Notes: generated by a model from the sequence alone, not told the origin. Shown: positions 435 to 9,432, counted from the stretch's first letter. The stretch: 64,000 bases of DNA from an uncultured delta proteobacterium (GCA_963803415.1 CAWDMI010000002.1:2723512-2787511), one strand, 5' to 3'. A program made the numbers and translations.

Positions 435-1784
435 CTAAATGCGTAGCGCCTTCAGAAGCCTCAGTAGATACTTTTCGTGTAAGCCCAAGGCCCTCGCGGC
501 GGCGGCGCGGTTTCCCCGGGCGCTAGCGAGCGCCGCGAGGATCAGGTTTTTTCTATGCGATTCAATGCTTTCACGATAGGACAGAGCTTGAGTCCGGGAA
601 CCGGCCGGCGGCGCGACGATTCGAGGCGGGAGGTCCGACACCGCGAGTTCTGGCCCGTTGCCGAGGACCACGCCCCGTTCTATTACGTTGGCCAACTCGC
701 GGACGTTACCGGACCACTCATAAGCACAAAGTCTTTCCAAAGCCTCTTGCGTGATCGCACGAAAATTCTTCTTTGTTTCTTGCGCCGAGCGGTGGAGGAA
801 ATATTGCGCCAGCGCCGGGATGTCTTCTTTTCTTTCCCTCAATGGCGGCAAAATAATCGGAACCACATTTAGACGGTGATAGAGATCCTCGCGGAAGCGA
901 CCCTCTTTGACCGCAGCCTCTAAATCACGGTTCGTAGCGGCCACGATGCGCACTTCCACGCGAATCTGTTTCGTTCCTCCCACTCTGTCGAATTCGCGTT
1001 CTTGGAGAAATCTAAGTAGCTTTGTCTGAAGCTCGGGCGAAATATCGCCGACTTCGTCGAGAAAGACGCTCCCGCCATTGGCCAGCTCCATTTTGCCTTT
1101 TTTGAGCTGATCCGCGCCCGTGAAGGCTCCCTTTTCATGTCCAAAAAGCTCACTTTCCAACAGTTCCTTGGACAGTCCCACGCAGTTAATGGCAACGAAG
1201 GGCTGATCCTTCCTTTCACTCCAATTGTGAATAGCTCGGGCGAAAATTTCTTTTCCGGTGCCGCTTTCGCCGAGAAGCAAGACAGTGGCTTTGCTGGCTG
1301 CCGCTTTTTTTGCGGTCTCAATCGCCTCTCTCATTTTTTCGCTTTTCCCGACCACTAAGCGGTAGCGCTTGTCCGCTTCTTCGGAAAATAGCTCCAGTTC
1401 TCTTTTCAGTTCTTCCCGTTCCAGCGCCTTGCGCACCACGATCTCGAGGTGCTGGGGATCGAAAGGTTTGGGAATAAAATCGTAGGCTCCCTCATTCATC
1501 GCTTCGACTGCAGCTTCGATAGAGCCGTGCGCGGTAATTACAATGACAGGGATATCGACCTCTTCTTGCTTCAGCTTTCGCAGAAGGTCCATTCCACCCA
1601 TGCGTGGCATGTGGAGATCTAAGAGGACCAGAGCGGGCGTCTGCTGTTTAATTGCGGCCATGGCCTCATGCCCGTCGGCAGCCATCGTTACCTGGCACTC
1701 CAGGGCGCGGAGGCGCACGTCTAGAAGGCGCCGTGATGCGGCGTCATCATCAACTACTAATATTCTCGCTCCGCTTGTTTCCAT
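435..1784 (-). CDS. Sigma-54-dependent NtrC-family response regulator with REC, AAA+ and Fis-type HTH domains
   Basis: REC motif (ILVVDDD...LLDLHMP), Walker A GESGTGKE, GAFTGA motif, ESELFGHEKGAFTGA, C-terminal HTH. Confidence 0.9.
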   Translation of the reverse strand: METSGARILVVDDDAASRRLLDVRLRALECQVTMAADGHEAMAAIKQQTPALVLLDLHMPRMGGMDLLRKLKQEEVDIPVIVITAHGSIEAAVEAMNEGAYDFIPKPFDPQHLEIVVRKALEREELKRELELFSEEADKRYRLVVGKSEKMREAIETAKKAAASKATVLLLGESGTGKEIFARAIHNWSERKDQPFVAINCVGLSKELLESELFGHEKGAFTGADQLKKGKMELANGGSVFLDEVGDISPELQTKLLRFLQEREFDRVGGTKQIRVEVRIVAATNRDLEAAVKEGRFREDLYHRLNVVPIILPPLRERKEDIPALAQYFLHRSAQETKKNFRAITQEALERLCAYEWSGNVRELANVIERGVVLGNGPELAVSDLPPRIVAPPAGSRTQALSYRESIESHRKNLILAALASARGNRAAAARALGLHEKYLLRLLKALRI

Positions 1785-1850
1785 TTTTAATCTTCAGTCA
1801 TTATTTTAGGTGTACAATCTTTTCTATACGAGCACGAGCAACGAGCACGA

Positions 1851-2234
1851 TCACGAAATTTCCTCCCTGGCAACGCGCAAGGCGACCTCTTGGATGAACG
1901 TGTCCTTGTCAATGGGCTTTGTGATATAGCCAGCACAGCCAGCAGCCAAGGCTTTCTCCCGATCCCCCTTCATCGCGTATGAGGTTACGGCTACAACCGG
2001 GATGTTGGCCGTCGCCGGCTGCGCTTTGATTTTCTTGACCGCCTCAAGTCCATCCATTCCGGGGAGCTGGATGTCCATCACGATCAGATCGGGCCGCTCT
2101 GTCTTCAGGACGTCAAAGGCCTCTTGCGCCGTAGTGGCCTCGCGAACCTCGTAACCCTGCGAGCGGAGCAGGAACAGCGCCAGACGCCGATTCACCGGAT
2201 TATCCTCAACCAGCAGTATCTTCTTTCCGTTCAT
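1851..2234 (-). CDS. Single-domain CheY-like response regulator (REC)
   Basis: KILLVEDNPVNRRL...DLIVMDIQLPGMDG...KPI motifs. Confidence 0.85.
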   Translation of the reverse strand: MNGKKILLVEDNPVNRRLALFLLRSQGYEVREATTAQEAFDVLKTERPDLIVMDIQLPGMDGLEAVKKIKAQPATANIPVVAVTSYAMKGDREKALAAGCAGYITKPIDKDTFIQEVALRVAREEIS

Positions 2235-2403
2235 ACAATTTTGAATTTTAGATTGGACGCAAAACCCAACAGTATCTTCACCTGGGGGTTCCTATGGTGC
2301 CACTTATTGCGCCAATCTCTTGGTTTCCTTGTAGCAAAATCGATCACTCCCCCATTCGATTTGAGCTATGTGCGCTCGATCATTCTCGCCTTTCCCTAGC
2401 TTC

Positions 2404-2808
2404 TTAGGACCCTCTCCCTACGGGAGAGGGAACGGGTGAGGGTTTTGTGTCACGTAACGCCTGCGCAATTTGTTCCAGGACTGCGTCAATATCTTCGAAT
2501 ACCTCGTTATCCCAAAAGCGTAAGACACGATAGCCGCAACGTTTCAGAAAATCAGACCTTCTTTGATCCGCTTCAGTTTGGGTGGCGTGCTGGCCCCCAT
2601 CGAGCTCTACCACCAGGGCGTGTTCCAGGCAGAAGAAATCGACAATGTAACGGCCGATAGGATGCTGGCGGCGGAACTTAGCACCGCAAAGCTGCCGTGC
2701 ACGGATCCGCATCCAAATCCTGCGTTCCGCTTCTGTCTGATTACGGCGCAGTGTGCGGGCCCGTTGCCACAGGATTGAAGCGCTTGGTGCCATGTTGTTC
2801 GCCCTCAC
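2404..2808 (-). CDS. DUF559 / Vsr-like endonuclease domain protein
   Basis: The length and the ...YIVDFFC...LVVELDGGQH...RRSDFLKRCGYRVLRFWDNEV motif match the DUF559 restriction-endonuclease-like fold. The C-terminus reads into repeat copy B. Confidence 0.7.
   Translation of the reverse strand: MRANNMAPSASILWQRARTLRRNQTEAERRIWMRIRARQLCGAKFRRQHPIGRYIVDFFCLEHALVVELDGGQHATQTEADQRRSDFLKRCGYRVLRFWDNEVFEDIDAVLEQIAQALRDTKPSPVPSPVGRGS
2410..2442. repeat. Palindromic dispersed repeat, copy B (ccctctccc-tacg-ggagaggg-aac-gggtgagg)
   Basis: Read directly. It overlaps the 3' end of the DUF559 gene. Confidence 0.6.
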
Positions 2809-2834
2809 CCTGACCCTCTCCCAGAGGGAGAGGG
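2802..2834. repeat. Palindromic dispersed repeat, copy C, in inverted orientation (ccctcaccc-tga-ccctctccc-agag-ggagaggg)
   Basis: Read directly. It sits at the 5' end of DUF559 and is inverted relative to copy B. Confidence 0.6.
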
Positions 2835-2878
2835 AATACGGTTAATGAACAAAAAATACCTAATCCAAAAAAGTTCCG

Positions 2879-2912
2879 TCTCTCTCTCTCTCTCTCTCTC
2901 TCTCTCTCTCTC
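2879..2912. repeat. (TC)17 dinucleotide microsatellite followed by a T4C7 tract
   Basis: Uninterrupted tc repeats are visible at 2879-2912. Confidence 0.9.
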
Positions 2913-2928
2913 TTTTCCCCCCCTGTCT

Positions 2929-8602: not shown

Positions 8603-8631
8603 GGTCTCTCCCTCCTTCTTTGGTCTTATCA

Positions 8632-8647
8632 AGCAATTAGTGCGCCA
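8632..8647 (-). promoter_or_regulatory. Sigma-54 -24/-12 promoter TGGCGCACTAATTGCT upstream of USP-like paralog 2
   Basis: GG-N10-GC with a TTGCT -12 box, about 25 nt upstream of the ATG. Confidence 0.7.
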
Positions 8648-8840
8648 GTGCAGAATAAGTTGCCGACATCCTCTAAGTCCGCCGAAAAATTAGAGAAAAT
8701 TCTTTCCCTTCTTCGGTGGGGTCTCAAACGGAAGTAACCTTTCTCATACTCTGAGGAAAACAAAAGGATACTCACAAAGGAAGACAAAATGCTGTGGATC
8801 GGTCGCTTTGCACCTGACGCGGACGGCAAATCTCTGGAGC

Positions 8841-8890
8841 CAAAAAGCCAGAACCGAACCCGCCATTCAGACAGTTCGGTTCTGGTTTCG
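8841..8890 (-). terminator. Intrinsic terminator: 12-bp perfect stem (ccagaaccgaac/gttcggttctgg), 14-nt loop, CTTTTTG tail on the minus strand, plus a T-rich tail on the plus strand
   Basis: The inverted repeat and flanking T-runs were read directly, immediately 3' of USP-like paralog 3. Confidence 0.6.
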
Positions 8891-8911
8891 TACTTATTTT
8901 GAGATAGTTGC

Positions 8912-9385
8912 CTAAGACTGAGTCCCGACGAACACAGGCGGTCGCTTGAACGGGATCCAGGAGGCAACCGTTTGATGGAGAAGCTCTATCGCTCGCGTTG
9001 CAATCCGAGGACGCATAATGATGAGGTCAACGTCTCCTCCAGGCACGAAGCTCTTCAGGGCTTCTCTGAGACTGCCGGTATAAGCCTCCACAGCTATTTT
9101 TAATCCCAGCTCATGCAAGGCTTCACATGCATGAAATACTCGCCGCTGAGCTAATTGGCTACGTGTCTCTGTCGAATAACTCTCTACCATTCTTCTTATT
9201 GCGGCAGTCTTTTCCAGTCCGCACTGCATGATAGCGGAGTAGGCCTGCAGCCATTTGAAACCATTCACCGGCTGATGAACGAGAAAGACGACGTGCGTAC
9301 TCGGCTCCGCGAACGCCTTTAGGTAAGGGATGATCTTCTCGATTTGCTCGTGTTTTCTCAGCGGAACCAAAATTTTCTTTGCCAT
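8912..9385 (-). CDS. USP-like protein, paralog 3
   Basis: MAKKILVPL...VVFLVHQPV...GSLREALKSF..DVDLIIM, homologous to the ORFs at 5603 and 8126. An RBS aggagg precedes the ATG. Confidence 0.55.
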   Translation of the reverse strand: MAKKILVPLRKHEQIEKIIPYLKAFAEPSTHVVFLVHQPVNGFKWLQAYSAIMQCGLEKTAAIRRMVESYSTETRSQLAQRRVFHACEALHELGLKIAVEAYTGSLREALKSFVPGGDVDLIIMRPRIATRAIELLHQTVASWIPFKRPPVFVGTQS

Positions 9386-9416
9386 TGTCTTGTCCTCCTT
9401 TCGATGAAGTTAAATG

Positions 9417-9432
9417 AGCAAGGGCCGTGCCA
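9417..9432 (-). promoter_or_regulatory. Sigma-54 -24/-12 promoter TGGCACGGCCCTTGCT upstream of USP-like paralog 3
   Basis: GG-N10-GC with a TTGCT -12 box, about 30 nt upstream of the ATG. Confidence 0.7.

Follow-up and report, generated by a model that had tools for sequence, protein, structure and literature searches.

Here, we describe a gene module at positions 435 to 9,432 of a 64,000-nucleotide stretch of DNA from an uncultured delta proteobacterium (GCA_963803415.1 CAWDMI010000002.1:2723512-2787511; hereafter, the window). Three paralogous genes in this module, whose products resemble universal stress proteins (USPs), are each preceded by a sigma-54 promoter, and they share the locus with a multi-GAF histidine kinase, a stand-alone receiver and an NtrC-type activator. 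We conclude that the module is probably a dedicated two-component, sigma-54 regulon of USP-like genes. About 100 related loci from soil metagenomes share the layout, and the lineage is Binatia. All module genes (435..9432) lie on the minus strand, as do their promoters and upstream sites, and the order of transcription is paralog A, paralog B, a Tyr/Gln-rich protein, a GFA protein, a SnoaL-like protein, paralog C, the kinase, a DUF559 protein, the receiver and the activator. By A, B and C we mean the paralogs at 9385..8912, 8602..8126 and 6109..5603. An earlier note on this DNA, made from the sequence alone, had the genes and coordinates right and was loose about orientation, since everything is on the minus strand. 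The three open reading frames (ORFs) it listed are present and indeed paralogous, with 56% identity between B and C and 34–39% between A and either of the others.

Ahead of each paralog stands the motif TGGC-N7-TTGCT, its end 29–40 nt from the ATG. Promoter A (TGGCACGGCCCTTGCT, 9417..9432) reads TGGCACGGCCCTTGCC in L001 and TGGCATGACGCTTGCC in L003, such labels denoting related loci fetched for comparison. Promoter B (TGGCGCACTAATTGCT, 8632..8647) reads TGGCGCGGTAATTGCT in L001, and promoter C (TGGCACGTTCGTTGCT, 6150..6165) is recognised by motif and conservation. When compared with the consensus TGGCAC-N5-TTGCW, in which the GG and GC doublets are 10 nt apart, A and C match at 12 of 12 positions and B at 10 of 12. 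The earlier note had called these three near-textbook −24/−12 elements, and each is found exactly where it was placed, with GG-N10-GC spacing. The motif TGGC-N7-TTGCT occurs six times in the 64-kb window against an expectation of 0.71, a count that none of 100 shuffles reached.

This signal extends well beyond the window. We fetched 104 related loci from genomes and metagenomes (1.23 Mb), located the family genes by hidden Markov model and scanned their upstream regions, calling a promoter wherever a GG-N10-GC element matched at least 9 of 12 consensus positions and started 44–58 nt before the ATG. Such an element precedes 95 of the 127 family genes that have at least 90 nt of upstream sequence, compared with a background of about 2% in comparable lengths of this DNA. 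Sites with a score of at least 10 number 146 in the 1.23 Mb, and 87 of them precede family genes. The enrichment for which the earlier note had proposed a genome scan is seen in the window and across the fetched family genes. Among the 32 genes without a standard site, 14 are second genes of tight tandem pairs, three have an element about 150 nt upstream, five show weak or partial matches, and 10 are divergent members without any. All three paralogs in L003 keep TGGCATG-N4-TTGCC, with proteins 55–67% identical to their window counterparts. Because the promoter is kept across related loci against so low a background, we regard it as a conserved attribute of the family rather than a coincidence of the window. 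One further match to TGGC-N7-TTGCT (7960..7945, minus strand) was considered as a promoter and rejected as chance, since it falls within the part of a gene that encodes a signal peptide and is not kept in the 92%-identical relative L001.

Two other sigma-54-type elements of the window lie outside the module. TGGCGCGGCTTTTGCT, at 29802..29817 on the plus strand, precedes an ammonium transporter gene (29944..31749, plus strand; Pfam Ammonium_transp, E 4e-104) by about 125 nt and lacks the upstream dyads described below. This layout is the classical one for nitrogen regulation and an indirect sign that the organism uses sigma-54. The second, TGGCACGGGGCTTGCG (58273..58288, minus strand), is a strong −24/−12 match whose end is 13 nt before the ATG of a 179-aa ORF (57720..58259, minus strand) that has no Pfam match. 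With so short a distance, either the transcript would have almost no leader or the start would be mis-assigned.

The earlier note had suggested a search for shared activator sites about 100 bp upstream of the promoters, and such sites are found, paired and at conserved distances. Alignment of the upstream regions, anchored at the promoter, shows a 16-bp dyad, GTAWC-N6-GWTAC, that begins about 100–115 nt upstream of the T of TGGC, and a second dyad 21–22 or 32–33 bp further upstream, that is, two or three helical turns away. A dyad matching at least 9 of 10 positions is present in this zone at 60 of 78 unique promoters, versus a background of about 2%, with positions concentrated sharply at −113 ± 2 and −146 ± 2 (or about −131), counted from TGGC. 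The pair is found at each of the three window promoters. At promoter A, the distal dyad (GTATCTTTTTGATTAC, 9548..9563) matches at 9 of 10 positions and starts 131 nt upstream of the T of TGGC; the proximal one (GTAACTTAAAAGTGTC, 9527..9542) matches at 8 of 10, starts at −110 and is 21 bp from the distal. At promoter B, the distal dyad (GTATCCTTTTGTTTTC, 8756..8771; 8/10) starts at −124 and the proximal (GTATGAGAAAGGTTAC, 8734..8749; 9/10) at −102, 22 bp apart; at promoter C, the corresponding sites (GTAACTTTTTTATTAC, 6282..6297, and GTAATCTAAAGGTTAC, 6250..6265; both 9/10) start at −132 and −100, 32 bp apart. Elsewhere in the window there are two single-mismatch matches to the dyad, against about 2.4 expected by chance, one of them (8062..8077) between paralog B and the Tyr/Gln-rich gene. 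A simple shared 8-mer, AAGGTTAC, was also considered and was superseded by the 16-bp dyad model.

At sigma-54 promoters, transcription begins some 26 nt past the T of TGGC. Counted from that point, the dyad centres would lie near −120 and −140 to −150, the classical enhancer geometry of NtrC-type activators. Between the dyads and the promoter, about 38–58 nt upstream of TGGC, is a conserved AT-rich block, which at promoter A spans approximately 9463..9489 and reads AAAaATTcTCCTGCyAATTCAG-like. It has no match to the E. coli consensus for integration host factor (IHF), and for this reason we do not call it an IHF site. To judge from its position, the block may suit a DNA-bending protein.

The activator gene (435..1784) encodes receiver (REC), AAA+ and helix-turn-helix (HTH_8) domains, matching PF00072, PF00158 (E 5.5e-73) and PF02954. 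The phosphoacceptor aspartate of REC and the DD...D...K residues, the Walker motifs, GAFTGA and the Fis-type HTH are all present, so that the protein has the group I NtrC-family layout. As the earlier note held, it is the sole sigma-54 activator in the window; we found no other. Compared with NCBIfam equivalogs, it scores 469 bits against AtoC (cut-off 714) and 438 against NtrC (cut-off 559), below every cut-off, and is therefore best described as a member of the family rather than as a named ortholog (NtrC, AtoC or ZraR).

Several observations tie this activator to the promoters. Full-length orthologs, 64–73% identical, adjoin family genes in L012, L013, L017, L018, L020 and L026. The gene order is kinase, receiver, activator, paralog, paralog in L012 and L013; paralog, activator in L017 and L018; activator, paralog in L081; and, in L020 and L026, the same as in the window, namely paralog, multi-GAF kinase, receiver, activator. 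Among loci of 4 kb or more, 16 of 44 contain an activator; in many of the others, the sequence breaks off within a very long kinase gene. Conservation of the activator and USP-like genes together, which the earlier note had raised as a check, is accordingly seen in several arrangements. The case for the neighbouring activator being the cognate one is made most strongly by loci in which the activator differs. In L014, L019, L084, L088 and L090, it has GAF, AAA+ and HTH domains and a different recognition helix; here the GTAWC dyad is absent and TGTCAAC/GTTTACA-type repeats are found instead, while the sigma-54 promoter and the AT-rich block, which occurs in loci of both activator classes, are kept. 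In other words, the upstream repeat switches with activator type. We also looked by eye for covariation of the REC-type recognition helix with GTAAC versus GTATC half-sites, and the pattern was not clean enough to claim. Given co-location in several gene orders and a repeat type that tracks activator type, along with the conserved promoters and dyads, we infer that this protein acts at these promoters, a link proposed in the earlier note and one that we consider well supported.

The cytoplasmic histidine kinase (2929..5373) has a coiled coil, three GAF domains, HisKA and HATPase_c. Pfam places the GAF domains in 3676..5373 and HATPase_c at 2929..3426, in agreement with the multi-GAF kinase of the earlier note, which had not recognised that the gene is not one intact ORF. 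According to tblastn with intact orthologs, the HisKA and HATPase_c parts are all present and colinear, spread over frames 2, 3 and 2, with switches near 3817 and 3487. No database record was found for the product of the HATPase ORF. In about 12 loci, the start of a multi-GAF kinase gene lies no more than 2 kb downstream of a family gene. Orthologs differ about fourfold in the number of tandem GAF domains that precede HisKA-HATPase_c, from three in the window to 12 in L007:990-8264 (2425 aa), with at least seven in L020:2400-6965 (1522 aa). The L001 kinase exceeds 2207 aa. The GAF repeats of these kinases are 45–60% identical to each other.

Next in the direction of transcription comes a DUF559 (Vsr-like endonuclease) cassette at 2404..2834, with its gene at 2404..2808, and then the stand-alone REC-only receiver (1851..2234), which has orthologs of 79–81% identity in the same position in L015, L020 and L026. 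The cassette is bracketed by CCCTCTCCC-N3-GGGAGAGGG palindromes, near-identical copies of which lie at 2410..2430 and 2814..2834, and a (TC)17.5 microsatellite (2879..2913) sits beside the gene. Elements resembling GGGAGAGGG are also found after the kinase gene, at about 2940, and after the NtrC gene, at about 370-410. The unit looks like a small mobile cassette, or one associated with repetitive extragenic palindromes, that was inserted into the operon. The earlier note described kinase, receiver and activator as co-operonic, which is too strong for this genome, given the (TC)17 repeat and the DUF559 gene between the kinase and the other two. Its statement that this operon ends 230 bp from the first USP gene has to be reversed: with every gene on the minus strand, it is the start of the kinase operon that lies 230 bp downstream of C, and the gap runs from the end of paralog C to the start of the kinase gene. 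Within that gap, TTGACA-N18-TAGGCT (5471..5500), read from the sequence and found also in L001, is a possible sigma-70-type promoter of the kinase operon.

Paralog A (157 aa, 8912..9385) is of a type without the glycine-rich C-terminal segment and has orthologs in L001 (74%), L003 (55%) and L011 (52%). Paralog B (8126..8602) has 158 aa, and paralog C (168 aa, 5603..6109) belongs to the type found directly upstream of the multi-GAF kinase in the 12 or so loci mentioned above. A protein search with paralog B returned 26 relatives in 5.8 billion sequences, most from metagenome-assembled genomes of Candidatus Binatia and none with a Pfam domain; a profile search extended these to 389 clusters at 50% identity, all of about 160 aa. 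Wider alignments of the family proved too divergent to be used in scanning metagenomes for loci. Pfam and NCBIfam gave no match to A, B or C, with no Pfam Usp hit at E <0.1, and profile searches against PDB sequences returned nothing significant. Nevertheless, 31 of 87 diverse family members have weak, colinear, sub-threshold matches to Pfam Usp (best E 1.3e-5), and one relative examined individually scores 23.0 bits against a cut-off of 24. The AlphaFold model of paralog B is a five-stranded alpha/beta fold (predicted local distance difference test score 77, predicted template modelling score 0.75), for which Foldseek ranks USPs first, at TM-scores of only 0.4–0.5 and with 12–20% identity to solved USPs. 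The description of these proteins as USP-like in the earlier note therefore holds at the level of the fold, a USP-type alpha/beta (HUP-class) one, and not at that of the sequence models, since the window proteins match no Pfam Usp model and fall short of the PF00582 gathering threshold. On the modelled fold and the weak sub-threshold matches, we place the family as a deep, unannotated branch of the USP superfamily.

Of the ATP-binding motif G-x2-G-x9-G-[ST], B and C have only an altered form, [TA]-R-A-G-x10-G-T, in which the first glycine is missing and one residue is added, and A has no glycines at this position. The family also has its own RYPVDG...YSWE segment and a long helical hairpin after strand 2. 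No conserved catalytic-looking polar residues were seen in the alignment of the family, which argues for a binding role over a catalytic one; most likely, these are non-enzymatic nucleotide- or partner-binding proteins. The A-type and B/C-type proteins form separate orthologous groups, each with its own promoter and dyads kept, and the split between them is older than the divergence of these lineages.

These features suggest the following mechanism. The cytoplasmic multi-GAF kinase would sense a small ligand and phosphorylate the NtrC-type activator (435..1784), with the stand-alone receiver probably serving as a competing phosphate sink or a modulator. The phosphorylated activator would then oligomerise on the paired GTAWC-N6-GWTAC dyads, centred about 120 and 140–150 nt upstream of the predicted starts, and drive open-complex formation by sigma-54 RNA polymerase at the three separate TGGC-N7-TTGCT promoters. 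The AT-rich block may assist by DNA bending. Each promoter would give rise to one USP-fold protein of 157–168 aa; the A and B transcripts are predicted to be monocistronic, and transcription from C may continue into the kinase operon, in which case there would be positive feedback. The products may have the stress role envisaged in the earlier note. On this evidence, we judge the locus to be a real and well-supported sigma-54 module of an ordinary type; the mechanism proposed for it is conventional.

A number of observations weigh against this interpretation. As regards the promoters, the ten or so divergent family genes (in L082, L087, L089, L093 and L094) are 32–37% identical to paralog B, and within 250 nt of them no sigma-54 promoter can be recognised; not every member of the wider family is therefore sigma-54-dependent. 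A search of the window and all fetched loci for ORFs with an RpoN box found none, and the presence of sigma-54 consequently rests on the activator and the promoter motifs. It might be argued that the −24/−12-like motifs are chance matches and that the genes use ordinary sigma-70 promoters; the chance match in coding sequence at 7960..7945 and one weak sigma-70-like match upstream of B would be in line with that. Set against the excess of the motif in the window (6 versus 0.71), and against its retention at the same distance in 95 of 127 genes despite 30–60% protein divergence, this explanation is effectively refuted by conservation across the related loci, and we give it next to no credence. 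As regards the activator, most fetched contigs are too short to show one, and L017 is an exception to the pattern described above in that it pairs a REC-type activator with a TGTCAAC/GTTTACA-type repeat. Both this exception and the presence of an activator in only 16 of 44 longer loci would fit real promoters served by an enhancer-binding protein encoded elsewhere, the adjacency of kinase, receiver and NtrC-type gene being incidental. We think this improbable. The adjacency recurs in at least four gene orders, the type of upstream repeat follows the type of activator, the window holds no other activator, and its dyads stand only before the three paralogs, save for the two chance-level single-mismatch matches.

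As regards signalling, the two frameshifts in the kinase gene scramble the HisKA segment, and the DUF559 cassette, with its repeats, stands between the kinase gene and those of the receiver and NtrC; in this organism, the pathway may accordingly be non-functional or rewired. An independent assembly of the same organism (L103:2226; Logan, ERR11718635) differs in the activator gene. It lacks 4 nt (window 601..604), one CCGG unit of GCCGGCCGG, and is otherwise 100% identical over 2.8 kb. The deletion cuts the activator to 412 aa without the HTH, and its source is either variation within the population or a difference in how the reads were assembled. Taken further, a non-functional pathway would mean that the module is decaying, with a kinase pseudogene, an inserted DUF559 gene and promoters that are silent or no longer under signal control; the activator deletion would be in keeping with this, as would the absence of the cassette from L020, which has just 72 nt between kinase and receiver. 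We consider decay unlikely, though it deserves some weight. Both frame switches bracketing HisKA are single-base changes in homopolymers (a C6 run near 3817 and an A3 run near 3487), the window comes from a single 3.57-Mb contig, and it has a second signalling gene that looks split at 44346..45324 (minus strand), where overlapping ORFs in different frames encode a truncated GAF domain and a PAS domain and probably represent one gene broken by a frameshift in the same way as the kinase. These points make long-read homopolymer errors in the consensus a plausible cause. Logan contigs from this organism break off at the GAF repeats and the (TC)n/DUF559 region. Moreover, the promoters, dyads, three paralogs, receiver and activator are intact and conserved. 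It is also possible, at about the same low level of probability as decay, that the USP-like proteins are signalling accessories of the multi-GAF kinase, such as feedback partners that bind a nucleotide or second messenger, rather than stress effectors. Stand-alone USPs and USP domains act as kinase accessories in other systems. Here, a family gene is immediately upstream of a multi-GAF kinase in about 12 loci (by less than 100 nt in L007), paralog C is not followed by a convincing terminator, the fold is that of nucleotide-binding USPs, and catalytic-looking conserved residues are missing; on the other hand, family genes in many loci, L017, L018 and L081 among them, are beside an activator alone, with no kinase, and the canonical ATP-binding motif is broken. 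A bolder and slightly less likely version is that the proteins are ligand-binding partners of the poly-GAF kinase, for example binding or buffering the very nucleotide or second messenger sensed by the GAF array, and that with read-through from C they form a self-contained feedback circuit. If true, this would explain both the near-obligate sigma-54 dependence of the family and its travel with kinases of 3–12 GAF domains. A dedicated two-component, sigma-54 regulon is the reading we favour.

Such a regulon resembles the NtrB-NtrC/glnAp2 system of Enterobacteria in several respects. The activator has the same layout of REC, AAA+ (GAFTGA) and Fis-type HTH, and two dyad sites lie upstream of TGGC-N7-TTGC, their centres 21–22 or 32–33 bp apart and so on the same helical face; at glnAp2, the NtrC sites are near −140 and −108. 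In contrast to that system, the sensor here is a cytoplasmic kinase with three to 12 GAF domains and no NtrB/PII control, there is an extra stand-alone receiver, GTAWC-N6-GWTAC differs from the NtrC site, and the targets are USP-like rather than nitrogen genes. The best NCBIfam match of the window activator is also AtoC, below cut-off. The proteins likewise differ from the characterised USP family PF00582 (MJ0577, UspF, Rv1636), with no Pfam or NCBIfam match, 12–20% identity and an ATP motif that is not intact. They share with KdpD-USP and UspC a genetic coupling of a USP-fold protein to a histidine kinase, and the KdpD USP domain (7ji4) is among the Foldseek matches. Unlike in those cases, the USP-like protein here is a separate gene product with its own sigma-54 promoter, and the resemblance is best treated as a lead. 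Sigma-54 control of UspA-family genes (COG0589) has been predicted in Planctomycetia by a survey based on position-specific scoring matrices (PMC12316311), which also places USP-type genes behind predicted sigma-54 promoters in a non-proteobacterial lineage. That survey concerned annotated USPs in another phylum, whereas the family described here is not annotated as USP, its promoter is almost universal, and a cognate activator with its sites can be proposed.

What is new is thus a USP-like subfamily and a predicted sigma-54 regulon in an uncultured lineage; mechanistically, it holds no surprise. Literature searches on sigma-54 with USP and activator, and on Binatia with sigma-54, turned up nothing specific, and to our knowledge regulation in Binatia has not been studied. 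For this uncultured soil lineage, the analysis provides a testable cis-regulatory map, from activator sites through AT-rich block and −24/−12 promoter to gene. It also defines a USP branch (about 390 clusters at 50% identity) that has no Pfam or NCBIfam model and is almost always preceded by a predicted sigma-54 promoter, and it links this branch to unusual kinases with long tandem GAF arrays. The combined model of dyad (GTAWC-N6-GWTAC) and promoter may be used to annotate the regulon in metagenomes. Since the mechanism is conventional, the value lies in annotation and in an entry to protein function rather than in a new principle.

The transcript ends of the paralogs differ. Paralog A is followed by an intrinsic terminator (8840..8885), as the earlier note had observed, with a strong hairpin (dG −25.4 kcal/mol, z −5.3) and a U-run. 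After paralog B there is a weaker, terminator-like hairpin (8026..8045), a 7-bp GC-rich stem (dG −12.8 kcal/mol) followed by UUUCUUUC, and a scan after paralog C found no convincing terminator. The suggestion that each paralog is an independent unit is accordingly well founded for A and B, which have terminators of their own, and less so for C. An Rfam scan of 1..12000 gave no match.

Three neighbours lie between paralogs B and C. A small Tyr/Gln-rich protein with a signal-peptide-like N-terminus (7632..7976), kept in L001 and L015, has no sigma-54 promoter assigned to it; it is followed by a GFA-family protein (6991..7401; PF04828, E 4e-31) and a SnoaL-like protein (6294..6821; PF07366, E 3.5e-20). 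These identities agree with those given in the earlier note. Divergent from paralog A is a 247-aa ORF (9891..10634, plus strand), which adjoins A-type genes in L001 (97%), L003 (46%) and L011 (36%). In its product, which has no Pfam or NCBIfam match, a signal-peptide-like segment is found along with a region rich in Q, E and R and two repeats of the form C-x-EGYVWREA-x-PGD-x-VCV. A UbiE-type methyltransferase gene follows the C-type paralog in L001 (11145-12026, before the kinase) and L003 (9403-10231), with none in the window. Finally, the glycolate-oxidase-like FAD/FeS genes at 11710..15868 of the window are also neighbours in L003.

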